A program made the translations under genes and the position numbers. Below are positions 2,430 to 35,567 of a stretch of DNA of 64,000 nucleotides, piece by piece; the stretch's first letter is position 1; every line of letters begins with the position of its first letter. This stretch comes from an uncultured Dehalococcoidia bacterium (lineage in GTDB: Bacteria; Chloroflexota; Dehalococcoidia; Lucifugimonadales; UBA3495): NCBI GenBank assembly GCA_951813535.1, contig OX638345.1, positions 2,899,477 through 2,963,476 of the forward strand, read 5' to 3'. The notes under the pieces were generated by a model that saw nothing but the letters and a program-made list of their open reading frames with translations, had not been told where the DNA came from and ran no database searches.

Positions 2430-3608
2430 CTAACACTCCCCCATCTGCACTAGTTGGCCCTCACGCCAGGCGGTGAAGCCACCCTTGACGGTGGCGAAGG
2501 TGTCGAGACGAAGCGCGCCATCGACGTTGTGACCAGCCATGTCGTGCCACACGAAACGGCCTTCGCGCTTGTCCCATATAGCGGCGTCGCCCTCCATGCC
2601 GACAGCCAGGGAGCCAATGCTGTCCTGCAGGCCGAGGATCTCGGCGGGTCGGCTGGTGCTGGCGGCGACGGCGTCGGATAGAGGCATGCCCAACGCGTGG
2701 AACTTGCTGACCAGGTCGTTCATGAGGTAGACGACGCGTCCCGGCGGCGCGATGTGGACATCGGTGCTGATGGTGTCGGGCACGACGCCCTGGTCCATGG
2801 CGGCCTTGACCACCTCCACGTCGCAGTGTATGCCGGCGTGTCCGACGTCCATGACCACCCCACGGTCGGCGGCAGCGCGGACCTCGGGACGGATTTTGCC
2901 AGAATTGTCCAGCATGTTTTCCGGGAAGCCGTTGAAGGCGTGGGTGGAGATGTCGCCGGGGCCGAGGTGTTCGAGCACGTCGGGCAAGGGGATGGGCGTG
3001 CCGCTGACATGTACCATGAGGCGAACGCCCGCCTCGGTGGCCGCTTCGCGGGCCCGCGACATGGCCTCGTGGGCGTTCCACCGGGCCACGGCGTCGAAGT
3101 GCATGCGGACCTTGACGCCGAATACGAAATCAGGGTTGTCCTTGATGGCCTGCACCGTCTGCTCCACGTCAATGATGCGCATGTCGTGGAGACCACCACC
3201 GAGAACCCGATTGGCCGCCAAACCGACAGCCCCGATGTGCAGGAAGGCGAGCAGCCGGGTGCGGTGCGCGGGAAATACGTAGTCGCGCATGGCGCCGTAA
3301 TTGAGGAAACCAGCGCTGCCAGCATCGACGCCGGTGGTCACGCCGCTGCCCAGGCAGGTCTGGTCGGCGTGGACGGCGCTGCCGCTGCCTCCATGATAGA
3401 AATGGCCGTGGAGGTCGATGAGGCCGGGAGTGACCAGTTTGCCGCTGGCGTCGATGGTCTGCGTGGCGGAGGTCGGATCGATGTGATCGGCAACCGCGGC
3501 AACCTTGCCGTCCTTGAAGGCGATGTCGCGGGGTTCGTCGTTGATGCCCTGGGTCGGGTCAAGCAGGTTGCCGCCCGACAGCACCAGGTCATAAGTGGCG
3601 GTGGTCAT
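2430..3608 (-). CDS. amidohydrolase-superfamily metallohydrolase (dihydroorotase/deacetylase-like)
   Basis: Motifs DLHGHF (HxH), VHVSG, DVGHAG and STDVH fit the amidohydrolase TIM-barrel. GGAGGG lies 9 nt upstream of ATG 3608. The ORF-track start at 3626 is a TTG overlapping that RBS. Confidence 0.75.
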   Translation of the reverse strand: MTTATYDLVLSGGNLLDPTQGINDEPRDIAFKDGKVAAVADHIDPTSATQTIDASGKLVTPGLIDLHGHFYHGGSGSAVHADQTCLGSGVTTGVDAGSAGFLNYGAMRDYVFPAHRTRLLAFLHIGAVGLAANRVLGGGLHDMRIIDVEQTVQAIKDNPDFVFGVKVRMHFDAVARWNAHEAMSRAREAATEAGVRLMVHVSGTPIPLPDVLEHLGPGDISTHAFNGFPENMLDNSGKIRPEVRAAADRGVVMDVGHAGIHCDVEVVKAAMDQGVVPDTISTDVHIAPPGRVVYLMNDLVSKFHALGMPLSDAVAASTSRPAEILGLQDSIGSLAVGMEGDAAIWDKREGRFVWHDMAGHNVDGALRLDTFATVKGGFTAWREGQLVQMGEC

Positions 3609-3651
3609 CGGATTGGTTCCCTCCAATCAACGTTCAACGCGAAAGCCCGGC

Positions 3652-3660
3652 GTTCTATCA
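3652..3660 (-). promoter_or_regulatory. extended -10 promoter element TGaTAGAAC for the amidohydrolase gene
   Basis: Minus strand reads TGATAGAAC about 44 nt upstream of ATG 3608. The same TGnTAGAA(C/T) pattern recurs upstream of other genes in the window. Confidence 0.4.
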
Positions 3661-3707
3661 AAGTGCATGGCGCTCGCATTGCACCTCAGAAAATTGGCGA
3701 CCCGGAG

Positions 3708-4181
3708 CTAGTCCTCGTCCCAGTAATAGTCCTCGGCGGCGAGATTTTCCTGCCACCAGCGGCGCAAACGGGGCAGCACCAACTCCTTGGGCTTGCGAAA
3801 ATCGGTCTCAACGAAGTCGAGGGAATCCGAAAGGGGCTTCGCCTCCCACTTTTCGATGGCCTCCATGATGAACCGTCGCACCATTTCCGGGGAACGGGAC
3901 TCCAGCCGGCCCAACTGATAGGCCAGGGTCACGGCCATCTGCATCTGGCAGATCACCGCGTGGGCATCCTCGTCGCGCAGGTTTTCAGGCATGGCGCCGG
4001 ACTGGTCGATGAAGTCGTCCAGAACCTGACCGATGATGAGCGGGGGATCGTTTTCTTCGTGTTCCGGGAGGAACTCCACCAACCGGTCTGCCAAGTCGGC
4101 AACGCCTTCTTCCGGAAGGGCGTAGTCAGCCCAACGGTCATCGCCGGGCTCCGGGTTAGGAGTAAACTGGTCGTCGCTCAT
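3708..4181 (-). CDS. hypothetical acidic protein
   Basis: Open frame with high third-position GC. ATG 4181 has AGGA 8 nt upstream. The ORF-track start at 4223 (GTG) would leave only about 30 nt to divergent ybeY. No motif recognised. Confidence 0.5.
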   Translation of the reverse strand: MSDDQFTPNPEPGDDRWADYALPEEGVADLADRLVEFLPEHEENDPPLIIGQVLDDFIDQSGAMPENLRDEDAHAVICQMQMAVTLAYQLGRLESRSPEMVRRFIMEAIEKWEAKPLSDSLDFVETDFRKPKELVLPRLRRWWQENLAAEDYYWDED

Positions 4182-4253
4182 TGCATCGTCCTGAGCCCCA
4201 AACTGTTCAAACAATTGTATCACGCACCCATTACAAGGATGATTCTCAGCAAT

Positions 4254-4808
4254 ATGACGGTGTTGCTCCCAAATGTTTCCGTGTCAGTACAGACGGACCT
4301 GCCAGAGGGATGGGAACCCATTGACGAACCGGGGTGGCTCGATTCGGTCGTGCGCCGCGGTTTGGCGCAGGCCATACCGGCGAATGCGTCGGGTCAAGTG
4401 AGCCTGCTCCTCACGGACGACGCGACCGTGCGCCACCTCAACCGGGAGTACCGAGGCGTAGACCGTACAACGGACGTGCTGTCGTTTTCGTTCGATCACT
4501 GGGGTCACTGGGAAGGGGATGAGGACGCGCCGGGGTCCGACGAAGAGCTGTTACCGGGGTGGCCGCTACCGGACGACGAGCCGCCGCCGCTGGGGGAGAT
4601 AGTGGTCTCGGTTCCACAGGCGGCTCGACAGGCGGAAACACAGGGGGTGCCGCTGCAGGAGGAGCTGGCGCTGCTCATAGTGCATGGGGCGTTGCACCTG
4701 CTGGGGTACGACCACTATGACGACGAGGAACGGGAGGCGATGCAGGCGCTTGAGCGAGCGGCGTTGTCGGGCCTGTTCCAGAATCCCGAGCCTCCGGTCG
4801 CCGACTAG
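4254..4808 (+). CDS. ybeY: rRNA maturation endoribonuclease YbeY
   Basis: C-terminal part of listed ORF 2697..4808. Carries the HGALHLLGYDH zinc motif and DVLSFSF. Start is ATG 4254, with in-frame alternative ATG 4239. The upstream part of the listed ORF is shadow of minus-strand genes. Confidence 0.85.
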   Translation: MTVLLPNVSVSVQTDLPEGWEPIDEPGWLDSVVRRGLAQAIPANASGQVSLLLTDDATVRHLNREYRGVDRTTDVLSFSFDHWGHWEGDEDAPGSDEELLPGWPLPDDEPPPLGEIVVSVPQAARQAETQGVPLQEELALLIVHGALHLLGYDHYDDEEREAMQALERAALSGLFQNPEPPVAD

Positions 4809-5353
4809 AGGTAGACCATCGCCACCATGATGGCGAAGTAAACCAGCGTCGAGACGACGAGAGCCCAGACGCCGGCCGCCAGATCGTCCAGCATGATTCC
4901 CCACCCGCCATGGAGGTCTTCGAGGCGCCGGCATGGCCAGGGCTTGAGGGTGTCGAAAGCGCGGAAGGCGAAAAAGCACAGCGCCACCCACCACAGCGGC
5001 CACCAGGGCGCAAAGAGGGCGGAAGACAGATGCCAGGAGGCCCAGGCGGTGGGAATCAACGTAATCCACATGCCAACAAACTCGTCCCAGACCGCAGTGC
5101 CGGGGTCGGGGTTGGCGTCAGTGGACATGCGTCCGGTGGCCCAAACACCGACGACCGTTCCGCCCAGGATCAGGACCGCGAGGACCAGCAAGCGCAGCAG
5201 AGTCGCAAAAGGACCGTCGGCGGGGAGCAGAAACATCAGGGCGCAGTAGATAATCGCCGCGGCACCCGCGCCGGCGGTACCCGGCGCCAGGGGGGAGAGC
5301 CCGCTGCCGAATCCGCTGCCGATGAGCCAGGCCAGGCGATCCGCCCAGGACAT
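4805..5353 (-). CDS. pgpA: phosphatidylglycerophosphatase A
   Basis: PgpA motifs FGSGLSPLAPGTAG, DEFVGMW, FRAFDTLKPWP and GGWGIMLDDLAAG. ATG 5353 avoids overlap with the upstream gene (stop at 5364). The 3' end overlaps the ybeY stop by 4 nt (convergent). Confidence 0.8.
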   Translation of the reverse strand: MSWADRLAWLIGSGFGSGLSPLAPGTAGAGAAAIIYCALMFLLPADGPFATLLRLLVLAVLILGGTVVGVWATGRMSTDANPDPGTAVWDEFVGMWITLIPTAWASWHLSSALFAPWWPLWWVALCFFAFRAFDTLKPWPCRRLEDLHGGWGIMLDDLAAGVWALVVSTLVYFAIMVAMVYL

Positions 5354-5363
5354 TTTCCGGAGA

Positions 5364-5738
5364 TCAGGCGTAGCCCAGCCGGTCCAGATCATGCTCACTC
5401 AGGCCCAGATAGTGACCGATTTCATGCAGCAACGTTGTTCGCACTTCCCGGACCACGTCGTGGTGGGTGTCGCAGATATCCAGGATGGGCAGCCGATAAA
5501 TATAGATGCGGTCGGGCATCATAGGATCGGCAGCGTATCGCTCGACCAGAGGTACACCGACGTAGAGGCCAAGGAGGTTGTCGCCGTGATCGTGGTCGGA
5601 CAGGTCCCCGGCGTCAACGGCCTCGGGTCCCGGAAGGTCCTCGACGAGGATGTCGACGTTCTCCAGGGATGCGCGGAAGTTTTCGGGCAACTCCCAATAG
5701 GCCTGCTGAACCAGGCCTTCAAACTCGTCGGGGCTCAT
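5364..5738 (-). CDS. small zinc metallopeptidase-family protein (DUF1025-type)
   Basis: 124 aa with an HEIGHYLG zinc-binding motif near the C-terminus. Lies 14 nt downstream of nfo on the same strand. Confidence 0.7.
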   Translation of the reverse strand: MSPDEFEGLVQQAYWELPENFRASLENVDILVEDLPGPEAVDAGDLSDHDHGDNLLGLYVGVPLVERYAADPMMPDRIYIYRLPILDICDTHHDVVREVRTTLLHEIGHYLGLSEHDLDRLGYA

Positions 5739-18602: not shown

Positions 18603-19034
18603 TCACTCAGATTGCTCATGGGTGGGAGCCGGGGTGACGGGACCGGTTTCGATTTCCGTTTCATTAACCACGCGGCGAAGAACGTCGTTGATGCGAGCCC
18701 TCCAATCCCCGCCCTTGCGGCGGAAGTGCGTAACGACATCCTGGTCAAGGCTGAGCTCTACGTTCACACGGTTCTGGCCGTTGGTTCGGGCCGCGAGGTA
18801 TGCATTGACCAGGTCAGGGTCGACTTCGATCGCCGGACGCGCCTGGGCGAATTCTGCTTCGATAGGCACCCAACAGTCAGGGTCGGTTGCGATGATAACG
18901 TGGATGGCGACTTGCTCGCCGTAAATGGCCGTGACTTCGGAGAATGTCTTGCCGGCGATTTCATCATAGGGGGGCAATGCGGCGAATTCTTCGGGAGTAA
19001 GGCCGCTGGGTTCATAGCCTTCAGCCATATTCAT
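18603..19034 (-). CDS. brnA: BrnA-type antitoxin (DUF4415) with extended N-terminus
   Basis: C-terminal VNVELSLDQDVVTHFRRKGGDWRARINDVLRRVV matches the DUF4415/BrnA signature (..RLD.DV..WF...G.GYQTRIN..LR). Overlaps brnT by 14 nt. Confidence 0.7.
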   Translation of the reverse strand: MNMAEGYEPSGLTPEEFAALPPYDEIAGKTFSEVTAIYGEQVAIHVIIATDPDCWVPIEAEFAQARPAIEVDPDLVNAYLAARTNGQNRVNVELSLDQDVVTHFRRKGGDWRARINDVLRRVVNETEIETGPVTPAPTHEQSE

Positions 19035-19293
19035 TCACCTCTATTTGGCTGGCGGGACGGAAGCTGATTATGCGCCTGATTTCACCCATTGCACCGCGCC
19101 GAGTGTACACGACAACATACAACCGGGCGTCGAAATAACCGTAAGCCACCCAGCGGGACTCTTCATATCGGTTGCTCGGAACGATGATGGCCGTATCCCG
19201 CTCAAACAGAGATCCTGCATCAGCAAAATCCAGTTCGCGTCCGTCCAGGGTTTCACGGCGTTTATCTTCGTCCCACTCGTATCGGATATTCAT
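19021..19293 (-). CDS. brnT: BrnT-type ribonuclease toxin (DUF497)
   Basis: 90 aa. N-terminal YEWDEDKRRETL and C-terminal IRRIISFRPASQIE match the DUF497 pattern (FEWD..K...N..KHG ... IRIISAR.A...E). Confidence 0.8.
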   Translation of the reverse strand: MNIRYEWDEDKRRETLDGRELDFADAGSLFERDTAIIVPSNRYEESRWVAYGYFDARLYVVVYTRRGAMGEIRRIISFRPASQIEVNEYG

Positions 19294-19371: not shown

Positions 19372-20586
19372 TCAGCCAGGCACTTCGTCGTAATGGTGGA
19401 AGGTGCCGATGACGTTGGCCTCGTACATGGCCTGGACTTCGTCCTCAGTATAGTCAAGGATGCCGGTCAGCACGTCTTCGTTGTGCTCGCCCACCTGGGG
19501 AGTGGTTCCGACGACGGCGGGGGTGCGGCTGAAGTGCCAGAAGTCGCCGGAGACGGCGATGGTGCCGGCCAGGAAGTCGTCGACCTCGACCATGGCGCGC
19601 CGCTCCCACGGATGCGGATCGGCGGCGGCCTGGGCGATGGTGTTGACCGGAGCCGCGACCACGTCGTGGTGGGTGAAGTGCGCGATGGCTTCGTGCATGG
19701 TCATGTCGGCCATCAGATCGCGCATGGCCTGGTTGACCAGTTCGCCGTTCGCTCCGCGCTCGTGGCGGGTGGTGAACCGAGGGTCTTCCAGCCACTCGGG
19801 CTTGCCCAGGGCGTTGCAGACGCGGTGCCAGTGGTGCTGGTCGCCGGCGGAAATGAGCACCCAGCCGTCCTTGCACGGATACGTGCCGGACGGGGGCGCC
19901 GCCGACTCGCCGCGCCTGGGCTCGATGCCGGCGCCGTGGTAGGCGGTGATGGGGATTTCGGTATAGCTGTAGCCGGTGTCGGCGAGGCAGGCGTCGATGG
20001 TCTGACCAACGCCGGAACTCTCGCGCTCGTGCAGAGCGGCGAGGGTGCCGATGGCGGCATGGAGCGCCGTGGTACGGTCAATGATGGGCACGCCGGCGCG
20101 GATGGGTGGCATCCCCTCTTCTCCGGTGACCATCGCGATACCGGACATGGTCTGACCGATAGGGTCGTATCCGATCTGCTCGCGGTAGGGCCCGAACTGC
20201 CCGTAGGCCGAGACGTTGACCATGATGATGCGCGGGTTCAGCTCGTAGAGCACGTCGTAGCCGAAGCCCATAGTATCAATGGTGCCGGGCCGGAAGTTTT
20301 GAAGCAGCACGTCAGAGACCTGGACCAGCTTGCGGAGGACTTCCTTGCCACCTTCTTTGCGGAGATCGATGCTGAGGCTCTTCTTGCCACTGTTGTACTG
20401 GACCCAGTAGGCGGACTGCTTGCGGACCCAGGGAGCGTGGTAGCGAGTTTCCTCGCCACCGAGGCGCTCAACCTTGATGACTTCGGCGCCCAAACGGGCC
20501 AGTACCTGGGCGCAGCGGGGGCCGGCCTGGTGCCGACCGAGGTCAATGACGCGTATCCCGTCCAGAGGGCCTTTAGCTTCTGGCAT
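19372..20586 (-). CDS. CaiB/BaiF family (class III) CoA-transferase
   Basis: N-terminal PLDGIRVIDLGRHQAGPRCAQVLARLGAEVIKVE signature. 404 aa. Confidence 0.85.
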   Translation of the reverse strand: MPEAKGPLDGIRVIDLGRHQAGPRCAQVLARLGAEVIKVERLGGEETRYHAPWVRKQSAYWVQYNSGKKSLSIDLRKEGGKEVLRKLVQVSDVLLQNFRPGTIDTMGFGYDVLYELNPRIIMVNVSAYGQFGPYREQIGYDPIGQTMSGIAMVTGEEGMPPIRAGVPIIDRTTALHAAIGTLAALHERESSGVGQTIDACLADTGYSYTEIPITAYHGAGIEPRRGESAAPPSGTYPCKDGWVLISAGDQHHWHRVCNALGKPEWLEDPRFTTRHERGANGELVNQAMRDLMADMTMHEAIAHFTHHDVVAAPVNTIAQAAADPHPWERRAMVEVDDFLAGTIAVSGDFWHFSRTPAVVGTTPQVGEHNEDVLTGILDYTEDEVQAMYEANVIGTFHHYDEVPG

Positions 20587-20687: not shown

Positions 20688-21917
20688 CAGGGCAATCGCA
20701 TTTCACAGGGATAGGACTTTGAGCAGGTAATCGAAGTCCCATCCGGCTTTTTTGCGTTTGGCCTTGATGCCGACTTTGGCGGTGCGTTCCTGCTTGAGCA
20801 GGTTCAGTGCCAAGTGCCTGATCACTGCCAGGTTCTGGTCAGCGTGGCCGGTCCTCACTCGGCTGTGGTCCTCGTCGAAGGCCACGTCCAGCACCCAGTG
20901 CAGGCTGTTCTCGATGCTCCAGTGGCTTCTGGCCGATGCCAGCAGCGTGGCCGCGTCCGCCGGATAGCTGCAGATGTAGTAGCGGGTATCGGTTGGGGCA
21001 TCGGTGGTAGCGTCCCGTCGGTAGCTGACCCGGGCCACCGCGCCCAGGCTGGCCCATTGGCGCTGGGGGTCCACGTAGGTCAGTTCCTCTGGGTCGGTGA
21101 TCGCCCAGCACTCCCGCCGTTCCAGCCGGCCGTGGTCTTTGCCCACCTGTTGGTGGTGGCTGTAAGCCACACCATCCCATCCTACACGCTCACAGCAGGC
21201 GAACAGGTCCTTGATGTTCTGGTGCAACTCTCCCTGGTTGGCCTTCACCGCCAGCAGGTAGTCAGCGCCCCCCTGCACCACCTGCTGGGCGATGTTCCTC
21301 TGGCAGCCCATGGCGTCTATCGTCACCAGGCAACCCTTCAGTTCCAACACCTTGAGCAGTTCCGGTATCGCCGTGATCTCGTTGGAATGGGCCTCGGTGC
21401 GGGTCTGTCCCAACACCATCCGGTTCTCGGTGGCCCACGCGCTGACCATATGCAGCGCACCTCGGCCGTTGGCCCGGTCATGGCAACCCCGCAGGGTCTT
21501 GCCATCTATCGCCACCACCTCACCCTGGGCCAGTTCACTCACCGAGCGTACCCAGTCCATGAAACAGGCCGAAAACTGCTCCGGGTCCAGCAGACCAAAC
21601 ACCCGACCAAAGGTGTCGTGGGAGGGTATGCCGTTTGGCAACTGCAAGAAGCGGCGGAACCAATCCTCCTTGGCTTTACCGAACTCCTCAATCTCCACCC
21701 AGTTGTCGGCGCAACAGATCACCGCGCAAAGAGTGATGACGATGATGTCCAGCAACTCATGCCTTTTGGCATGTCCGGTTCTCGGGTCTTCCAGCATTCC
21801 AAACCGTTCGGCAATCGAAAGCGGTACATTGTCCATCTCCACCACGCACCTCAGACAATCAGATCGTGGCAACACTTTAGCCCGATTTTTAGAATAATCT
21901 GAAATGCGATTGCCCTG
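20688..21917 (-). mobile_element. ISAs1-family insertion sequence, apparently intact (1230 bp)
   Basis: Perfect 18-bp terminal inverted repeats: CAGGGCAATCGCATTTCA (20688..20705) and its reverse complement (21900..21917). Contains a single transposase ORF and is flanked by a 10-bp direct repeat. Confidence 0.85.
20703..21836 (-). CDS. ISAs1 family transposase (H-repeat-associated type)
   Basis: N-terminus MDNVPLSIAERFGMLEDPRTGHAKRHELLDIIVITLCAVICCADNWVEIEEFG is the DDE_Tnp_1-associated signature, followed by AIDGKTLRG...ITIDAMGCQ...HWSIENSLHWVLDVAFDED. The listed ORF extends to 21875, but ATG 21836 fits family N-termini better. Confidence 0.85.
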   Translation of the reverse strand: MDNVPLSIAERFGMLEDPRTGHAKRHELLDIIVITLCAVICCADNWVEIEEFGKAKEDWFRRFLQLPNGIPSHDTFGRVFGLLDPEQFSACFMDWVRSVSELAQGEVVAIDGKTLRGCHDRANGRGALHMVSAWATENRMVLGQTRTEAHSNEITAIPELLKVLELKGCLVTIDAMGCQRNIAQQVVQGGADYLLAVKANQGELHQNIKDLFACCERVGWDGVAYSHHQQVGKDHGRLERRECWAITDPEELTYVDPQRQWASLGAVARVSYRRDATTDAPTDTRYYICSYPADAATLLASARSHWSIENSLHWVLDVAFDEDHSRVRTGHADQNLAVIRHLALNLLKQERTAKVGIKAKRKKAGWDFDYLLKVLSL

Positions 21918-21927
21918 GTGGCTAACG
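21918..21927. repeat. target-site duplication (right copy) GTGGCTAACG
   Basis: See the left copy. Confidence 0.85.
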
Positions 21928-22063
21928 GTACTGATGGTTGGACTACCATCGGGGAGCGCCAGGGCGGGTGAGCACGAGGATTCGTGGAGGACAGAACGAT
22001 CCCGAGTGAACCCACAGGCGCGTCGGGGAGGCTGGATCGTGCATGTAACAAAATTGAAACGTT

Positions 22064-22136
22064 TTCACAATTTGTTCACTAATATCGGGCCTGTTTTCAC
22101 TTGCTTTTCACAGTTGGTTGCTACGCTGTGTTCACA
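22064..22136 (+). promoter_or_regulatory. array A of five phased TTCAC(A/T) direct repeats
   Basis: TTCAC starts at 22064, 22075, 22096, 22107 and 22131, all in the same orientation, with spacings of 11, 21, 11 and 24 nt. It sits about 95 nt upstream of a small ORF with an AAGGAG RBS. Confidence 0.6.
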
Positions 22137-22229
22137 GATGCGAACGAGGCCAAGCTGGGTTGGCAACACCGAAACGGGAAGCCTCCCCGACCGTCCGCAG
22201 AAAAATCCACACAAGGAGACGACCGCATC

Positions 22230-22349
22230 ATGGGCGCAGCGAAAATCAAAATCGGCAGACTCACCTGGAAGGAATTCGGAATGGTCGCAGTGGCCGGCGC
22301 CTTGCCCGTTGCCGTCCTGGGGCCGGCGCTGATGATCATTGCGCAGTGA
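22230..22349 (+). CDS. 39-aa single-TM peptide (hypothetical)
   Basis: ATG 22230 has AAGGAG 11 nt upstream. Product is MGAAKIKIGRLTWKEFGMVAVAGALPVAVLGPALMIIAQ, a basic N-terminus plus one hydrophobic helix. In frame with the tail of listed ORF 22101..22349. Confidence 0.45.
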   Translation: MGAAKIKIGRLTWKEFGMVAVAGALPVAVLGPALMIIAQ

Positions 22350-23149
22350 CAACAACGACGCGGCGCGACACCAGGAGGGACATCGTCAAATAGCGGTGGA
22401 AGAGGTCCAGATCGGATCAGAAACCATGTCAAACCGGTGGCTCTGCAGGCGCCATAATTCGCCAGGAACAGGGTCTACCATACACCAGCGACGGGCGTGA
22501 ATAAGCGCAGCAGCATCAACACAAGCCAAGTGCTCCGAAACACATAGCGACGGGGCGGGGATAATCAAACAATTCGCATAGGCGCGCCGCAACTGGGGCC
22601 AGTGGGTGATAATGCTCGCTGGCCTCTTCTTCTGTCTTGGAAACCCGAGTATCTCTGCCAAGCCATGGCGAGCCTGGCGTCGTGGAGGTAAGGGCGTACG
22701 CTTTCGAGAACAAGACCGAAATCAGTGCCAGTCAACCCGTACGTCGGCAATGCAACGGGCCGGAGGATACGACGACCTCCGGCCTACCTGCCGGTCGGAT
22801 CCTCCAAGATGAAAAATACGCTGTGCATCCGGCCGCGACCTCCGTGCGAATATCCGCGGCCCGAGGCCGAGAGGTGCGGCGCTCCCCTTCATCCCCGCCG
22901 CGCTGACCAAGTCTGCTCTCCCGTCGGGATTGCCGAGTTTCGCTTGCAATGACAGTTCGAATTCAATGGGTACGGATATGCGTACTTTCGGCGGCAGAGC
23001 CCGGCAGCGTCGCGGACCGCAATGGAGCGGGGCCCAACTATGGGGTCGGAATGTGCGAGTCCAACGTGTCGAACGTTCGTCTTTTTTGCCAGCCAAGACG
23101 CGTGGGCTGACACCATTCTCCAGAGAAACAAGCGCAGTAAATGGGGCAG

Positions 23150-23219
23150 TTCACGTCCCGCAATCGGCCTTTCACGTTATGTTCATACATTTACGCCTGA
23201 TTTTCACTCAGTTTTCACA
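23150..23219 (+). promoter_or_regulatory. array B of five phased TTCAC/TTCAT direct repeats (paralog of array A)
   Basis: Motif starts at 23150, 23171, 23182 (TTCAT), 23203 and 23214, with spacings of 21, 11, 21 and 11 nt. It aligns without indels to array A from the first pair through TTTTCACARTTGRTTGMTAC. Confidence 0.6.
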
Positions 23220-23561
23220 ATTGATTGATACCATCAATATGTGGACGGGGACGAGGCAAGGGTTCAGTCAGGCGGGTGAGTGCGGTATCGCCGAGCCTCG
23301 TCCATTTTCCCAAACGCGGGACTAGCTACCTTCGCGACGATCCTCACCAGCAATTACTGAACGTCAACCCGAGCCGACAGAGGCACGCACACACGGCAAT
23401 GGCCATCCGAGCAGCAGCGCCGCAGCATGATCTCGCCACCACTCGAACGGGCGAAAACTCTTGCAGAACCAGGCAATATCAACAAACGTGAAATACACGA
23501 TTCATACAAGTGTCATTGGGAACGCCACCAGCCTGGCATCATAATTCATCGAGGAGGAACC

Positions 23562-23858
23562 ATGTTTGCAGCGAATGCGCATAAGGGAAGACCGAGAGCG
23601 CCGGTGCCCAGAGGACGCAAGGGGCTTTGGGTGTTGGCGCTGGCCGCGATTGTATTGGTCGCCCTGATGGGCCTGATGATGGCATCAGCAGACCAGACCC
23701 CCTACGGGGCGACGCAAGTATGGTCTGCCGAACCCACAGGAGCGGTCAACACCGAAACATCATCCATGTCCGTGAGTCACCTCATCGGCGGCCACCCTTA
23801 CGGCCAGGATGCGGGAAGCCTTCCGGCGGCTACGCTCATACACGTGGGAGCGCAGTGA
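23562..23858 (+). CDS. 98-aa signal-anchored small protein (hypothetical)
   Basis: ATG 23562 has GAGGAGG 5 nt upstream. Product MFAANAHKGRPRAPVPRGRKGLWVLALAAIVLVALMGLMMA... has a basic N-terminus, one TM helix and a polar tail. In frame with listed ORF 23427..23858. Confidence 0.55.
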   Translation: MFAANAHKGRPRAPVPRGRKGLWVLALAAIVLVALMGLMMASADQTPYGATQVWSAEPTGAVNTETSSMSVSHLIGGHPYGQDAGSLPAATLIHVGAQ

Positions 23859-24317
23859 GGCATCGCCGAATGGATCGTACCGGCGACCGTAAGTTGGCAT
23901 CGCTCCACAGGAGGTGCGCGGCAATATCCACTCAATTCGACCTGAATCACCAAGCCGGAGCCAATAACTTTCGAGGGTTCAATCGGATCTACGGCGGGCT
24001 TTGCCCAGGCAACACACGCCGGTTTGGAGAGAGGGGTGCTAAGCGGACCGACGGCATGGCCATATTGGCGGAGACAATAACTCCTCTTCAGGCCTGAGGT
24101 CCGTGGCGTCGCAAGACGCAGCCGCAAATTGCCATTCGAATTCGGCGCATAAGCCGACCGGGGCCAGCGGGCAATGACGCTCGTTGGCCCCATTGCTTGT
24201 CGAAAGTCGTTACCGGCACGGTGGACCCGGCGGCACGGCGACCGGCGTCGGGCCGTGCTCGATTGCGGCGCCAATACCCGTTTGGGACGAGGCGCAAAGG
24301 ACGAAGCGGAAAACGGG

Positions 24318-25490
24318 CTAACGGTGCCGAGCTCGGGGGTGTTCCATTTGCGACGCCCTTTCCGCCGTCACACTGACGAACCGCTCGGGACGGTATGGGC
24401 CGAGCACCGCGTCGGCACGGGCGCCGTCGCAGATCTCCAGAGCAGCCAGTTGGCTCAACGCCGGCGCGAGCGTGACGCCGCTGTGGGTGAGGGCGACGTA
24501 GAGATTGGAGGCTTCTCGGGCAAAGCCCATGACCGGGTAGCCGTCCAGCGGCATGGGTCTCCAGCCAACGGGCACGGGCACGGCCGCGGCCCCTTTCAAT
24601 CCAGGCAGGTGCTGGCACGCCCTGGCCAGAAGGTCATCGGCGTGGGCCTGGCTGTCGTCTTCGGCGAGGCTTTCCTGATCGCCCTCGCCGATCATGAGGC
24701 GACCGTCCGGACACTGCCGCAGGTGAATCTCGCGGCGGCCGTCTTCCAGTGGAGGGGCGTACACGATTGGTACGTGGTGCAGCAGAGGCGGCATCGGGCT
24801 GGTGCGAATAACGACGCCGGGGCTCTCGGCCTGTGGCACGTGGACGCCGGCCATAGCTGCCACGGCCGTGGTGGCAGTGCCGGCAGCGACGACCACGACG
24901 TCGGCGTCGATGTCGCCGTTGGTAGTCTGGACCGCGCTGACGCGATCCTGGGAGTCTTTGCGCAGCCCCGTGACTTCCACACCGGTAACGACAGAGGCTT
25001 CCAACTCGCGCAGCCGGTTGAGGCAGGCGCCAACCACCATCTGCGGTTCGACTTGCCCTTCGTTTTCGCTGTATTCCGCGGCGGCTACCGGGCCGATGCG
25101 CAGGGCCGGTTCCAGTTCCTGGAGTTCCTCGCGGGAGACCAGGCGGGTGGGATAGCCCCAGGATTGGAGTTGCTGCACCCGGGCGACCAGAGCCTGGGCG
25201 GCATCCGGGTCGGATTCCCAGGACACCTTGCCACCCCAGCGCAGGTCCACGTCTTCGCCCAGGGCTTGGGCGAACCGTGGCCACATCTCCAGCGAGCGGC
25301 GGTTGAGGTTGTGGTAGCCGACCGGTTCCTTGGCGCCAGCGTTGATCCAGGCGAAGCTGTGGCTGGAGGCCCCACCGCCGGGTTGGCCCCGGTCAATGAT
25401 CGTGACGCGGATGCCCCGGGAGGCCACGCGCCAGGCGATGGAAGCTCCAACGATGCCGGCGCCGATGACTACAACGTGTCTTGCGTTCAT
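24318..25490 (-). CDS. FAD-dependent oxidoreductase (DAO/glycine-sarcosine oxidase-like)
   Basis: N-terminal HVVVIGAGIVGASIAWRVASRG dinucleotide fold. ATG 25490 lies 1 nt after the MoxR stop. Confidence 0.8.
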   Translation of the reverse strand: MNARHVVVIGAGIVGASIAWRVASRGIRVTIIDRGQPGGGASSHSFAWINAGAKEPVGYHNLNRRSLEMWPRFAQALGEDVDLRWGGKVSWESDPDAAQALVARVQQLQSWGYPTRLVSREELQELEPALRIGPVAAAEYSENEGQVEPQMVVGACLNRLRELEASVVTGVEVTGLRKDSQDRVSAVQTTNGDIDADVVVVAAGTATTAVAAMAGVHVPQAESPGVVIRTSPMPPLLHHVPIVYAPPLEDGRREIHLRQCPDGRLMIGEGDQESLAEDDSQAHADDLLARACQHLPGLKGAAAVPVPVGWRPMPLDGYPVMGFAREASNLYVALTHSGVTLAPALSQLAALEICDGARADAVLGPYRPERFVSVTAERASQMEHPRARHR

Positions 25491-25491
25491 G

Positions 25492-26445
25492 CTAGCCTCT
25501 GCGTCCGCCGCGCCGAGGGCCGCGGTTACGGGAGCGTTCCAGAAGGGAGCGGGCGGGCTCACCGCGCACGGCTTCGATGTCGTCCTGGTACTTCAGCATG
25601 ATGCCGAGGGTGTCGTCGATGACTTCCGGTTCGAGCTCACGCATGTTCAGTGCCATCAGCGCAGACGTCCAGTCCAGGGTCTCGGAGACTCCCGGGATCT
25701 TGTAGAGCTCGGTTTCCCGCAGTTCCTGGATGAAACCCGTGACCTGCTGGGCCAACTGACGGGGTGCGTCCGGGAGGCGCGCCGTGACGATCTGGAGTTC
25801 CTTCTGGTAGTCGGGGTAATCGACCCAGTAGTACAGGCACCGGCGCTTCAGCGCGTCGTGGACCTCGCGGGTGCGATTGGACGTGATCACGACGACGGGC
25901 GGGAAGGCGGCGTGAAAGGTACCCAGTTCGGGAATCGTGATCTGGTAGTCGGCGAGAAGCTCCAGGAGGAATCCCTCGAACTCCTCGTCGGAACGGTCCA
26001 GCTCGTCGATGAGGAGCACCGGGGCGCGGTCCCGGCTCTCGTCGATGGCTTCCAGCAACGGGCGCTTGATGAGGAACTGCGGGCCGAAAAGATCAACGCT
26101 TGACGCATCGCCACCGGCAGCGTCGCGCCGGGATTCCATCAGGCGGATTTCGAGCAGCTGACGGGTGTGGTTCCATTCGTAGACCGCGTGGTTGATGTCG
26201 AGGCCCTCGTAGCACTGCAACCGGATCAGGTCGGTGCCCAGGCCCGCGGCGAGTGCCCGGGCGATTTCGGTCTTGCCAACCCCGGCTTCGCCTTCCAGGA
26301 ACAGGGGTCGGCGCAACTTCAGAGCCAGGAAAATGGCGATGGCCAATCCCCGGTCGGTTACGTAGGACTGATCCCGCAGCAGGCTCTGAACGTCTTCCAC
26401 TGAGGCGGGGGCGGGTGATTCGTGCTCGGCGTGCAGGGTAGTCAA
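25492..26445 (-). CDS. MoxR-family AAA+ ATPase
   Basis: Walker A LEGEAGVGKTEIARAL, Walker B LLIDELDR and a MoxR-type C-terminal lid (PGVSETLDW). Confidence 0.85.
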   Translation of the reverse strand: MTTLHAEHESPAPASVEDVQSLLRDQSYVTDRGLAIAIFLALKLRRPLFLEGEAGVGKTEIARALAAGLGTDLIRLQCYEGLDINHAVYEWNHTRQLLEIRLMESRRDAAGGDASSVDLFGPQFLIKRPLLEAIDESRDRAPVLLIDELDRSDEEFEGFLLELLADYQITIPELGTFHAAFPPVVVITSNRTREVHDALKRRCLYYWVDYPDYQKELQIVTARLPDAPRQLAQQVTGFIQELRETELYKIPGVSETLDWTSALMALNMRELEPEVIDDTLGIMLKYQDDIEAVRGEPARSLLERSRNRGPRRGGRRG

Positions 26446-33070: not shown

Positions 33071-34687
33071 TCAGCTGGCGGCGTACTTCTCGCCCAGGGC
33101 GGTCTCCCACCGCAGGTAGTTCTGCATATCGGCATAGTTCCGGTCGGGTCCGCTGAAAACCACGTCAGAAGGCGTCCGCGTGACCCCGCTGAGTCCTTCC
33201 TCCACCGGGAGGCGGGAGGCCTGCCACGACGTGACACCCCCAGCCAGGACTTTCGTGTCGGAATAACCGATCTGGCGCAGCGTTGCGGCCGCCAGCAGGG
33301 ATTGGCGCCCGTCGACACAGGTAACCACGATGCTGGCATCATTGGACCTGACGTGGTCCGTGACCTGCCATTCGAGCCATCCTCGCGGCACCCAGCGTGA
33401 GCCGGGCACGTGGGCACGGGCGAATTCCTGGCTGGTATCGACAAAGATGATCACGTCGGGGCGATCTTGGTCGAGGGCCTGAGCCGAAACGGCCGGCACC
33501 GTACGACGAGCCTCCGCCAACAGTTCGGACTCGGTATCGCCAGCGATGGAACCGTCGTTCAATGCGCCGAGGCTCATTCCGGATTCCAACGGACGCCCTG
33601 CAGCGACCCAAGCCTGGGTACCGCCGTCGACGGCGTAGACCTCTGCGTGCCCCAATTGGCGAAACCAGGAACCGGTCAGGGTAGCCCTGGCCTTGCCGTC
33701 GCAACAGAACACTATCGGGGCGTTTTTCACGACTGCCACGTCGTCGCTACGCTGGACGCACTGGCCACCGGGGAACCACCGGAAGCCCGGAATTCGACCC
33801 CGGTCATATTCTTCAGACGTACGCACGTCAATGAAGTAGATGCTCTCGGTCACACTGCGGTCGGCCATGGCGTCCAAGCCAGCGACGTCCAGGAAGCGCA
33901 CGCCGTCTTCGGCCGCGCACCGTTCGGCGTAGGCCTCCGCTGCGGCGCGGCCTTCATCAGACACGCTGGGCAGGCGGTCCCGAGTCGCGCCAGATTCCAG
34001 ATCGTATCCGGCCAGCACCCAGCCGGAAGTGCCGTTTTTGAGGCCGACTACCTGGCGGTCCAGTCCCATGCGTTGCAGGACACGGGTCCCGATGATGCTG
34101 CGGGTGCGTCCGGCGCAGTTAACCACCACGGTGGCATCCGGGTCCAAGTCTGCCGTGATGTCCGTAATCCGCAGAGCTAACTCACCACCAGGCACACTTC
34201 GGCCTCCGGGTATGCAGAAACGGCGGTACTCCTCCGGCGTGCGCGTGTCTAGGATGACCATTTTTTCACCGCGATCCATACGGGCGCGCAATTCAATGGC
34301 ATCAATCTCGGGCACGTGGTGAACAACTTCGACCTTTTCGCCGAAATCCTTGCTGGGCACATTTACACCCCACTCGGTGGGGTAGTCCAAACTCACCCAG
34401 CGGTTGATGCCGCCGTCCAGCCAACCAACATTGTCGAACCCCATCGCTTCGACCGTGGCCACTGCCCGCGACACGCGGCGGCCGTCATCGTCGCACAGTA
34501 CAATCAGCGACCCCGCGTGGGGCACCGCGGAATGGAGGTCGAATTCCAGCCTCCGGCGAGGCATCAGGCTGCTTCCGGGGATGTGGCTGGAGTTGTATTC
34601 CCCGGGTTCGCGTACGTCAATCAGGGCAAAGGGTTGAGTGTCGTTGAACAACTCGTGAAGCTGTTCCGGACTAAAGGGACTAGCCAT
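33071..34687 (-). CDS. four-domain rhodanese (sulfurtransferase) protein
   Basis: Four tandem rhodanese-like modules. Candidate active-site loops are CDDDGRR, CAGRTRS, CCDGKAR and CVDGRQS. GGAG lies 8 nt upstream of the ATG. Confidence 0.8.
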   Translation of the reverse strand: MASPFSPEQLHELFNDTQPFALIDVREPGEYNSSHIPGSSLMPRRRLEFDLHSAVPHAGSLIVLCDDDGRRVSRAVATVEAMGFDNVGWLDGGINRWVSLDYPTEWGVNVPSKDFGEKVEVVHHVPEIDAIELRARMDRGEKMVILDTRTPEEYRRFCIPGGRSVPGGELALRITDITADLDPDATVVVNCAGRTRSIIGTRVLQRMGLDRQVVGLKNGTSGWVLAGYDLESGATRDRLPSVSDEGRAAAEAYAERCAAEDGVRFLDVAGLDAMADRSVTESIYFIDVRTSEEYDRGRIPGFRWFPGGQCVQRSDDVAVVKNAPIVFCCDGKARATLTGSWFRQLGHAEVYAVDGGTQAWVAAGRPLESGMSLGALNDGSIAGDTESELLAEARRTVPAVSAQALDQDRPDVIIFVDTSQEFARAHVPGSRWVPRGWLEWQVTDHVRSNDASIVVTCVDGRQSLLAAATLRQIGYSDTKVLAGGVTSWQASRLPVEEGLSGVTRTPSDVVFSGPDRNYADMQNYLRWETALGEKYAAS

Positions 34688-34979
34688 CAGCGCATCTCCG
34701 TCGACCAGGTCTATTTGATTCCGATCCTTGCGATCAGCAGCCGGTCACGCGGACGAGAACATCGACAATCAATATTGTGGTTCTACAATCCGCTCATTGT
34801 CTGTCGGAAATTATATGGGCTCCCACGCGATTTATGTTCGCGCCGCAGGAACTGGAGGCGGGGTTGGGGATTCACTATATCTTGGTCGAGACTACAGGTT
34901 GGCGATTCGCCAATATCGATGGGTATGCCACAAGTATACACTCCGAGCGCCAATGCGTCCCCGGCGTGACCATGCGGGA

Positions 34980-35567
34980 TCAACAGTTGTCGTACTTCTC
35001 CGTCATCATCTGCCGGATTGCGCCGGTTTCCAGGTCGTAACGCACCCGCTCGAGGCCGCGTAGGTCCTGCCCGTAGACGTGGACTTCAACGGTTGGGCGG
35101 TTGGTGAAGTTATCCATCTGGTGGATTTCGTCGACTTCGGGGATCAGCAGGCTTATTTCGCCCGGCTTGACCACGGCGGAACGGTCCCGCTCCAACCGGG
35201 CCCAATTTTCGCGCTCGCGATCGTCGACGCGGCGAAATCGGGTTTCGGTCAGGGCATTGTCCATCACGCCGATCATGCCCCAGGTACGGTGGTCGTGCGG
35301 AGCCGCGTGGTCGCCAGGACCCCACACTACGGCGGTGACCAGGAGGCCGCTTTCCGGGCTGTGGTGGAGCAACCAGGACCCGTGATTAGCGCGACCTCCG
35401 GAGCCACGGGGCAACCGGAAACGTTCGGGGATCGCGTCGGGATTCGAGATAAGGCGGGAAAGGCAGTCCGAGCCTTTATCGAAGATTTTTTCCTGGACAG
35501 GCTGGGAGATCAGAAGATCCTCCATATCCTGCACGAAATCTTCCAGCCCGTATCTGACAGCGACCAT
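34980..35567 (-). CDS. cysteine dioxygenase type I-like cupin
   Basis: 195 aa. WGPGDHAAPHDHRTWG metal-binding His cluster and later EVHVYG, a cupin pattern. Confidence 0.6.
   Translation of the reverse strand: MVAVRYGLEDFVQDMEDLLISQPVQEKIFDKGSDCLSRLISNPDAIPERFRLPRGSGGRANHGSWLLHHSPESGLLVTAVVWGPGDHAAPHDHRTWGMIGVMDNALTETRFRRVDDRERENWARLERDRSAVVKPGEISLLIPEVDEIHQMDNFTNRPTVEVHVYGQDLRGLERVRYDLETGAIRQMMTEKYDNC

Follow-up and report, generated by a model that had tools for sequence, protein, structure and literature searches.

An ORF-poor island in a Dehalococcoidia genome carries two paralogous predicted transcription units, one mainly for a structured RNA and one for a small membrane protein

Introduction

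Pho boxes, among them that of Escherichia coli PhoB and the TT(A/T/C)ACA repeats of Bacillus subtilis PhoP, exemplify the promoter layout used by OmpR-type winged-helix activators, and SARP activators are likewise associated with heptamer repeats at their target promoters. A study of Mycobacterium tuberculosis PhoP describes binding to 7-bp repeats with 4-bp spacers (PMC4832192). Here, we analyse a stretch of 64,000 nucleotides (nt) of the 4.38-Mb contig OX638345.1 from an uncultured Dehalococcoidia bacterium (hereafter, the window), in which an island poor in open reading frames (ORFs), at positions 21928-24317, contains two old paralogous units. As judged from their sequence, they would be transcribed from the forward (+) strand behind promoters of the type described above:

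Unit A, about 22134-22626 (+): leader hairpin, 39-codon ORF (ORF A), folded domain and terminal hairpin.
Unit B, about 23241-24191 (+): leader, ORF B, 3′ block and terminal hairpin.

A preliminary description of the island had mentioned "two cassettes" in passing; these are units A and B, and they are its real content. We regard the locus as an unannotated, conserved and clade-restricted structured-RNA and small-protein locus with predicted regulation.

Several described systems resemble parts of this locus. With OmpR/PhoB-family and SARP/AfsR promoters, the island promoters share direct 7-bp repeats with an 11-nt period in tandem pairs, and a last repeat that stands in for the −35 element, with the putative −10 element about 10 nt further on. 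Their TTCAC(A) core resembles the PhoP boxes of Gram-positive bacteria, and in Anaerolineae an AfsR-like regulator adjoins the same module, a further likeness to SARP/AfsR systems. Unlike in those systems, the island box pairs are not contiguous but 32 nt apart, and in contrast to Pho regulons the genes seen behind the module encode anchored or secreted proteins, with no phosphate-related gene among them. We liken the island promoters to the PhoB/PhoP- or SARP-dependent type as a resemblance in sequence, and claim no membership. Unit A is comparable to SgrS/SgrT, RNAIII/hld and SR1/SR1P, in which a short ORF and a better conserved structured RNA share one transcript (predicted for unit A) with its own regulated promoter and terminator; its predicted length of about 490 nt far exceeds that of most of these, and it has no sequence or Rfam relation to them. 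In placing a multi-helix, covarying domain in an unusually long intergenic region it also recalls OLE, raiA, ROOL and GOLLD, but it has no Rfam 15 match, is smaller (a core of about 230 nt) and occurs in a single clade at a single syntenic locus. MgrB, SafA and MgtS offer a parallel to ORF B and perhaps to ORF A, in that a promoter of response-regulator type precedes the gene for a short membrane protein with one predicted transmembrane pass, a likeness purely by analogy and with no sequence similarity.

Results

Conservation of the island among relatives

Relatives were gathered by three routes, namely DUF6941 neighbour look-ups, one genome-collection scan and one metagenome scan, and the compared set comprises at least ten lineages of one Dehalococcoidia clade (individual loci carry L numbers below). 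In exact-sequence look-ups, the flanking proteins fall in clusters labelled as "Dehalococcoidia bacterium" or "Chloroflexota bacterium" metagenome-assembled genomes (MAGs), with one member deposited under the sponge Geodia barretti; to judge from these deposit labels, the clade is probably sponge-associated. With the exception of L135 and L136, which are more distant, every Dehalococcoidia relative recovered has the order thiolase, (BrnT/BrnA), CoA-transferase, island, FAD oxidoreductase. The succession of CoA-transferase, unit A, unit B and FAD oxidoreductase was seen in L001-L007, L011-L018, L027, L028, L031 and L090; L052 and L077 are cut off, yet consistent with the same order. The synteny comparison proposed in the preliminary description thus has relatives keeping the island between the CoA-transferase and FAD-oxidoreductase genes, L059 and L065 without unit B. 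A larger gene occupies the gap in none of the relatives and no island ORF falls in a known family, so that neither kind of evidence named there against a distinctive island was encountered.

DNA identity to the window is 79-92% in the flanking genes and only 0.60-0.66 in the island overall, which is a mosaic of two blocks at 70-81% identity (approximately 22040-22630 and 23150-24200) and a 520-nt spacer:

Variable inter-unit spacer, 22631-23150 (no strand assigned): holds a stem (22758-22784) and a palindrome followed by a T-run (23070-23087).

The spacer gives no blastn alignment to the relatives, has an entropy above 1.3, contains large indels and varies in length, while in the same alignments the units are about as conserved as the flanking genes. 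Synteny and this mosaic conservation across relatives identify the island as an ancestral, vertically inherited locus of the clade. The decayed mobile element considered in the preliminary description is contradicted by the same syntenic site in at least ten lineages and by hairpins that are not repeated in the window.

Unit A is present at every Dehalococcoidia locus of the clade. Unit B is entirely missing from L059 and L065, most of its 3′ block is deleted in L090, and ORF B has a premature stop in L013. In L059 (6794-7509) and L065 (2500-3218), the terminal hairpin of unit A lies about 120 nt from the oxidoreductase gene. The distant L135, on a 4.29-Mb contig, has a 69-aa ORF B homologue (4580-5400) next to the thiolase and zf-ChsH2 genes known from the other loci; its leader measures 340 nt and its terminator is of the canonical T-run type. 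Another 69-aa homologue, in L136, adjoins the same genes. Given that L135 has an ORF B homologue and no unit A, unit B looks like the older unit and unit A like a derived paralogue. The unit A domain pattern, run against the Joint Genome Institute (JGI) metagenome collection, returned seven matches, of which two were true and both belonged to an already known lineage; the family is narrow and clade-restricted.

In nhmmer comparisons, the paralogy of the two units appears over the promoter and leader start (E 3e-7) and over the hairpin block at the 3′ end (E 1.5e-7), and weakly over the Shine-Dalgarno (SD) sequence and N-terminal ORF region (E 0.006). The terminal hairpin occurs just twice in the 64 kb, and the island's hairpins are not repeated elsewhere in the window.

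A shared promoter module

Unit A activator boxes (predicted), 22062-22111 (+): TTTTCAC 22062-68, TGTTCAC 22073-79, TTTTCAC 22094-22100 and TTTTCAC 22105-11.
Unit A extended −10 (predicted), 22119-22127 (+): TG-C-TACGCT, 10 nt past the last box.
Unit B activator boxes (predicted), 23169-23218 (+): CTTTCAC 23169-75, TGTTCAT 23180-86, TTTTCAC 23201-07 and TTTTCAC 23212-18.
Unit B extended −10 (predicted), 23226-23234 (+): TG-A-TACCAT, 10 nt past the last box.

Each unit is preceded by two pairs of 7-bp direct repeats (TTTTCAC/TGTTCAY) with 4-bp spacers, the pairs starting 32 nt apart, and 0.00 chance occurrences of the composite pattern are expected in the window. The boxes are conserved in 15 copies of unit A and in 11 of unit B, and TGnTA(A/C)nnT (more generally TGnTAnnnT) follows exactly 10 nt after the last box in every copy of either unit, with one CG variant. 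Both promoters thus have the repeat geometry of 7-bp repeats with 4-bp spacers, and in all copies, as well as in L097 and L135, the last repeat occupies the place of the −35 element, 10 nt from TGnTAnnnT; a −35 hexamer is absent from both predicted promoters. The conserved TGnTAnnnT hexamer is the putative −10 element, with predicted transcription starts near 22134 (unit A) and 23241 (unit B), and the layout appears to be that of promoters dependent on OmpR-type winged-helix activators. The regulatory-island option of the preliminary description is borne out to the extent that this activator-type promoter is conserved and that ORF B, the peptide side of that option, is under purifying selection.

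A genome scan with the promoter pattern gave 109 matches, and among the 80 listed most are chance occurrences in Firmicutes, Bacteroidota and other phyla. Genome OY760687.1 has the module a second time, in L097 (5800-7960), where the two box pairs and a −10 of the form TAnnnT precede a 160-nt leader and then a 642-aa, N-terminally anchored protein of no Pfam family. The L135 promoter reads ATGTTCACA ... ATTTTCACA, followed after 10 nt by TATCAT preceded by TG. Several MAGs of Anaerolineae/Chloroflexota have TTTTCACAAAATTTTCACAGCnGTTTGGTAgATTATA ahead of a protein of 76-90 aa (MRQTHTFVLK...), downstream of which lie very large signal-peptide proteins, one of them with Laminin_G_3 domains. In the Anaerolineae loci L024 (4848-8000), L029 (425-7445), L026, L085 and L091, the sites before the 76-90-aa protein are TTTTCACAAAATTTTCACA and TGGTAgATTATA; the protein itself (MRQTHTFVLK...GQISEP..DEWRASFGDVNELL) is conserved and has no Pfam family. 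The promoter of L024 and L029 is divergent from the gene for a 1008-aa regulator with BTAD, NB-ARC and TPR domains and a weak Trans_reg_C-like match at its N-terminus (E 0.012), a domain composition that is the AfsR/SARP architecture; the two regulators are 88% identical and count as one observation. From these sequences, the boxes appear to be a wider Chloroflexota activator module, whose targets so far are anchored or secreted proteins.

The pattern also matched Coleofasciculus (L030, L032, L054, L079), Spirulina (L047, L093) and Cuspidothrix (L068, L074), and the repeated matches in the same cyanobacterial genera suggest that these are not chance hits but mark a conserved site particular to them. 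Other identities for the island boxes were considered. For a phosphate regulon the evidence is neutral: behind the module, no pst or pho gene was found. DnaA boxes at a replication origin, suggested by the resemblance of TTTTCACA to TTWTNCACA, were rejected on a cumulative GC skew that does not turn here and on the direct orientation and 11-nt period of the repeats. A sigma-54 or extracytoplasmic function (ECF) promoter did not fit by eye.

Unit A

Unit A leader hairpin, 22139-22199 (+): outer stem TGCGAACGA/CCGTCCGCA, inner stem CGGGG/CCCCG.
ORF A, 22230-22349 (+): 39 aa, MGAAKIKIGRLTWKEFGMVAVAGALPVAVLGPALMIIAQ, with SD sequence AAGGAGA at 22214-20.
Unit A folded RNA domain, 22360-22590 (+): RNAalifold prediction of about 230 nt with about six hairpins.
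Unit A terminal hairpin, 22595-22626 (+): GC-rich, with a pyrimidine-rich tail; −23.9 kcal/mol, z-score −4.9.

The alignment of unit A comprises 15 copies from about ten lineages. The folded domain is closed by a near-invariant 8-bp helix, GCGGCGCG (22360-67) with CGCGCCGC (22583-90), contains conserved unpaired stretches besides its hairpins, and together with the terminator it has 58 pairs in which 96.7% of cells form standard pairs. Compensatory changes occur at 12 of these 58 pairs, against 5.1±1.5 in column shuffles (a value reached in 0/500) and 0-7 in slid-partner controls. Many pairs switch between G-U and either G-C or A-U, which indicates that the RNA is read from the + strand. The domain has no codon periodicity (entropy 0.59/0.58/0.55 by codon position), tolerates indels of 2 and 4 nt and is intact in 15/15 copies; the minimum-energy fold of the window copy recovers the main helices, and the whole transcript is predicted to fold modularly. 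In the leader, RNAalifold places 15 pairs with 90.4% of cells paired, and five of them are compensatory, as many as were found in 2 of 500 shuffles. The terminal hairpin, a probable terminator, has 13 pairs, three of them compensatory, is followed by clearer T-runs in several relatives and marks the point directly after which conservation ends. Both terminal hairpins of the island were picked up by a generic terminator/promoter scan.

ORF A was called as a gene in the source genome, and its consensus of 39-40 aa is M(V/I)AxKNxTGRLTWRELALVAVxGALPVAILGPALxIISxG. It is intact in 10/15 copies, the others having lost the start or acquired a premature stop or frameshift (start lost in L001, in-frame stop in L015, shifted or truncated in L028 and L090). 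The entropy of its codon positions is nearly flat (0.64/0.70/0.84), its ratio of nonsynonymous to synonymous substitution rates (dN/dS) is 0.67, with a dS of 0.50 against 1.04 in ORF B, and its mean entropy is 0.72 as compared with 0.57 for the next 245 nt downstream. ORF A thus looks weakly constrained and may or may not be translated. Unit A is a covariation-supported candidate structured RNA on which selection acts mainly through RNA structure, and the non-coding RNA locus that the preliminary description had listed among its options is recovered in this form, mixed with a peptide island.

That description had also pointed to unused SD-like sequences, AGGAGGG at 22373 and AGGAGG at 23909. 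Both are present; as for "unused", the run at 22373 lies within an unpaired stretch of the unit A domain, where most copies have a similar purine run and the alignment is poor. Pairing of a leader CCUCC with GGAGG at 22373 would be apparently compensatory in L028 and L059, and misfits in L015, L017 and L090. A role of unit A as a CsrA sponge, which its GGA motifs might suggest, was discarded, most of these motifs not being conserved across lineages. A perfect 12-nt complement, GTCGGGGAGGCT/AGCCTCCCCGAC, links 22022-22033, upstream of the unit A promoter, with 22180-22191 in the unit A leader; its upstream arm is not kept in relatives and it is probably due to chance.

Unit B

Unit B leader, 23241-23309 (+): long hairpin with basal stem GGACGGGG/CCTCGTCC, directly followed by ATTTTC.
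ORF B, 23562-23858 (+): 98 aa, with SD sequence GAGGAGG at 23551-57; called in the source genome.
Unit B 3′ block, 24043-24157 (+): three hairpins, CGGACC/GGTCCG around GGAG/CTCC, GGCGTC-N4-GACGCC at 24105-20 and TCGGC-GCATAA-GCCGA at 24142-57.
Unit B terminal hairpin, 24160-24191 (+): paralogue of 22595-22626; −30.1 kcal/mol, z-score −5.2.

ORF B encodes a protein with a basic N-terminus, one transmembrane helix (residues 20-43) and two conserved motifs, ASADQTPYGATQVWSAEP and a C-terminal YGQDxGSLPAATLIHVGA(R/Q). Its codon-position entropy (0.50/0.42/0.89) and dN/dS of 0.24 accompany a narrow set of homologues: a word-indexed search found 26 unnamed homologue clusters at 50-71% identity with no Pfam domains, and an exhaustive profile search of 1.84 billion representatives gave seven hits only, one of which is spurious (a 1237-aa low-complexity repeat protein) and two of which are 69-aa remote relatives. 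An AlphaFold model built with 22 homologues has a predicted local distance difference test (pLDDT) score of 58 and is confident for the transmembrane helix only. From its sequence, ORF B is a genuine conserved protein-coding gene for a predicted single-pass membrane protein, and an orphan; the idea that the island holds no real gene does not survive this result.

Across lineages, the basal stem of the leader pairs GGACGGGG with CC(C/U)CGUCC and is followed in nearly all by a T-run (TTTTT(T)), so that the leader resembles an attenuator or terminator. A variable 250 nt separates the leader from ORF B, and a variable 170 nt lies between ORF B and the 3′ block. The terminal hairpin is found about 125 nt beyond the point where the convergent oxidoreductase gene stops, and it may also act as terminator of that FAD-oxidoreductase operon. 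Motifs of the form G(C/U)(G/A)(C/A)AUA(A/G)GC recur in unit A (GUGAAUAAGC and CGCAUAGGC) and unit B (GCGCAUAAGC); the recurrence hints, speculatively, at a shared binding partner.

Composition, reading frames and family searches

The island had first been described as more A/T-rich by eye, and 1-kb bins across the window agree: G+C is 0.579 at 22001-23000 and 0.571 at 23001-24000, against 0.60-0.68 in the other bins, with the single exception of 34001-35000 (0.583). A profile of G+C at third codon positions (GC3), also proposed there, gave 0.55-0.62 for island ORFs and 0.75-0.89 for adjacent Pfam-supported genes. The longest ORFs within 21928-24317 are 158, 156, 143 and 142 aa, in keeping with the earlier statement that none exceeds 160 aa. 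A Pfam search of ten island ORFs at E≤1 had no match, and Pfam together with NCBIfam assigned no family to any island ORF. The earlier failure to match the island to anything known extends to Rfam 15, with no match in a cmscan of 21700-24500 at E≤1 and none at gathering score over the full window. No tRNA or tmRNA genes were found, the parts of the window checked contain no further multi-kb ORF-poor stretch, and a literature search on the island elements found nothing.

Two structures had been singled out in what is now the spacer. The 9-bp stem GGCCGGAGG/CCTCCGGCC is exactly present at 22758-22766/22776-22784 and is stable (z-score −3.1). The palindrome CGAACGTTCG followed by TCTTTTTT is also where it had been reported, at 23070-23087, but as a hairpin it does not hold up (−3.6 kcal/mol, z-score 0.0), and with folding no better than that a terminator at this site was ruled out. 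Both lie in the sole non-conserved part of the island and are probably irrelevant.

Discussion

Proposed mechanism and points against it

We favour the reading, at a probability of about 0.62, that the island consists of two paralogous units with winged-helix-activated promoters, of which unit A yields mainly a structured RNA and unit B a small membrane protein. An OmpR-type winged-helix activator encoded elsewhere, possibly a two-component response regulator or a SARP/AfsR-like protein, would bind the two tandem box pairs and recruit RNA polymerase to a promoter with an extended −10 and without a −35 element. Unit A would then give an RNA of about 490 nt, composed of leader hairpin, multi-hairpin domain of about 230 nt and terminator, which is most likely a regulatory or protein-binding RNA and possibly has a dual function with a small, basic-then-hydrophobic peptide. 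Unit B would give an mRNA of about 950 nt for the 98-aa single-pass membrane protein, with a leader that probably gates read-through and 3′ hairpins that probably aid stability. Both units would probably belong to a cell-envelope or surface regulon under one signal, an assignment drawn from the occurrence of the same module ahead of anchored or secreted proteins elsewhere.

A number of observations weigh against this reading. Transcription and its starts and ends are all predictions, the −10 hexamers are weak and a generic sigma-70 scan reported neither promoter, although the latter is expected for promoters without a −35 element. No regulator gene was found near the island, be it in the 20-kb loci with called genes or among ten further proteins of the window that were scanned; the latter are metabolic enzymes or have housekeeping roles. 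Outside their ends the two units are unlike, so that placing them in one regulon depends on the promoter. The covariation statistics of unit A are inflated by shared ancestry among about ten lineages of one clade, and folding of the single window sequence of its domain is modest against shuffles (z-score −1.7). In the unit B leader 94.3% of cells are paired and covariation does not rise above shuffles, while the 3′ block is nearly invariant in sequence and shows little covariation, which leaves its fold without covariation support. In the window copy, both terminal hairpins have tails that are pyrimidine-rich, with poor U-tracts.

Alternative explanations

A more ambitious version of the favoured reading, which we put forward as tentative, takes unit A to be an undescribed class of regulatory RNA (a core of about 230 nt with GYRHAUARGC hairpin/loop motifs partly shared with the unit B 3′ block), induced by the activator in symbiotic Dehalococcoidia and binding a protein or RNAs, and the unit B leader to be a new attenuator or riboswitch-like element; jointly they would form the RNA arm of an envelope or host-interaction regulon in sponge symbionts. 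Rather unlikely, in our judgement, is the simpler view that both units are plain small-protein genes, for a 39-aa membrane peptide and a 98-aa membrane protein, flanked by mere stabilising hairpins in the untranslated regions and by terminators. Both ORFs have a good SD sequence and were predicted as genes in relatives as well as in the source genome. The coding status of ORF B is clear, and ORF A is weakly homologous to its N-terminal part, keeps its frame through a 3-nt indel and yields a recognisable consensus peptide. Yet ORF A is less conserved than any other part of unit A (mean entropy 0.72, versus 0.57 for the downstream RNA), combines its dN/dS of 0.67 with a depressed synonymous rate and is broken in 5/15 copies where the RNA domain is intact in all 15, and a multi-helix domain of about 230 nt with a long-range closing helix and, counted with the terminator, 12 compensatory pairs far exceeds what a terminator needs.

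The short peptide of ORF A, with its basic N-terminus and hydrophobic tail, within an mRNA that is long and highly structured relative to the ORF, also recalls type I toxin-antitoxin systems, in which a toxic hydrophobic peptide is encoded by a folded mRNA and countered by an antisense RNA; tandem paralogues in an intergenic island and a BrnT/BrnA type II module next door could be read in the same direction, for unit A and perhaps for unit B. We consider this improbable. A generic scan showed no antisense promoter-like site, conservation stops right after the terminal hairpin and the G-U pairing points to selection on the + strand. Several lineages have charged residues within the hydrophobic segment, and the locus persists where the ORF is broken (5/15 copies). 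It is also single-copy, strictly syntenic and not scattered, and its promoter looks activator-dependent, not constitutive. Less credible still, to the point that we give it hardly any weight, is a non-functional leftover of a decayed mobile element or of pseudogenes, conserved merely by close relatedness. The lower G+C and GC3 than in adjacent genes, the insertion sequence (IS) beside the island and the unconstrained middle 520 nt would fit such a remnant, but the spacer has diverged past alignment while the units are about as conserved as the flanking genes, and a divergence of about 20% in those genes excludes that the relatives are copies of one assembly. The compensatory changes of unit A, the period-3 variation and dN/dS of 0.24 of ORF B, the fixed spacing of the boxes, the absence of any ORF of a known family and the lack of repeated hairpins elsewhere all oppose it. 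An integron cassette array or repetitive extragenic palindromes (REPs) were rejected on a hairpin that occurs twice in 64 kb and on the fixed content and position across lineages, and no integrase was found among the neighbours examined; retrons and IS-derived guide RNAs are contradicted by synteny, copy number and absent partner genes.

Significance

If the favoured reading holds, "empty" gaps in the genomes of uncultured symbionts can hide conserved RNA and small-protein genes that gene callers and databases miss, and a candidate structured RNA with covariation support is added from a lineage without a genetic system. To our knowledge, almost nothing is known of transcriptional control in Chloroflexota, and the promoter module of 7-bp TTTTCAC repeats with an extended −10, present in two classes of the phylum, may serve as a regulatory handle. 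Were the regulon to govern the surface proteins of sponge symbionts, it would offer a route into host-symbiont signalling. The family is narrow, and the immediate impact is correspondingly modest.

Flanking genes, insertion sequence and minor observations

Family III CoA-transferase gene, 19372-20586 (−): Pfam assignment.
ISAs1-family insertion sequence, 20690-21917 (−): transposase, inverted repeats and target duplication.
DDE transposase gene, 20703-21875 (−): Pfam DDE_Tnp_1_assoc and DDE_Tnp_1.
DAO-type FAD oxidoreductase gene, 24318-25562 (−): Pfam assignment; followed by AAA, Ham1, DUF6941 and MFS genes.

The preliminary description had the island abut a recently inserted ISAs1 element, and this proved accurate. 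The transposase is an ISAs1 equivalog (NCBIfam NF033564, 430 bits), the element ends in perfect 18-nt inverted repeats (20688-20705/21900-21917) and a 10-bp target duplication, GTGGCTAACG, occurs at 20680-89/21918-27; transposase, terminal inverted repeats and target-site duplication, the features of ISAs1 membership, were thus all found. Position 21928, the island start in that description, is the first base past the duplication. The element is missing from every relative compared and is a recent, later and unrelated insertion at the island edge, not part of the system. A motif GGCTAACGGT(A/G)C(T/C)GA occurs at 21920-21934, in the target duplication, and at 24316-24330, at the oxidoreductase stop codon, with 87% identity over 15 nt, and may reflect chance or an ISAs1 target preference.

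The genes for thiolase and CoA-transferase are separated by a BrnT/BrnA-type toxin-antitoxin pair at 18603-19293 (−), of which BrnA was matched in the window; both BrnT and BrnA are called in relatives, and L015 has no pair there. The region of second-lowest G+C, 34001-35000 (0.583), takes in a short intergenic stretch besides the 5′ end of a rhodanese-domain gene; TTTTCAC is present there at 34263, as is a weak box pair on the reverse strand, at 34644-34659 (−). In a 703-aa ORF at 2697-4808 (+), Pfam recognises YbeY endoribonuclease in the last 130 residues and nothing before them; the ORF is a fusion or else extends too far, across several genes.

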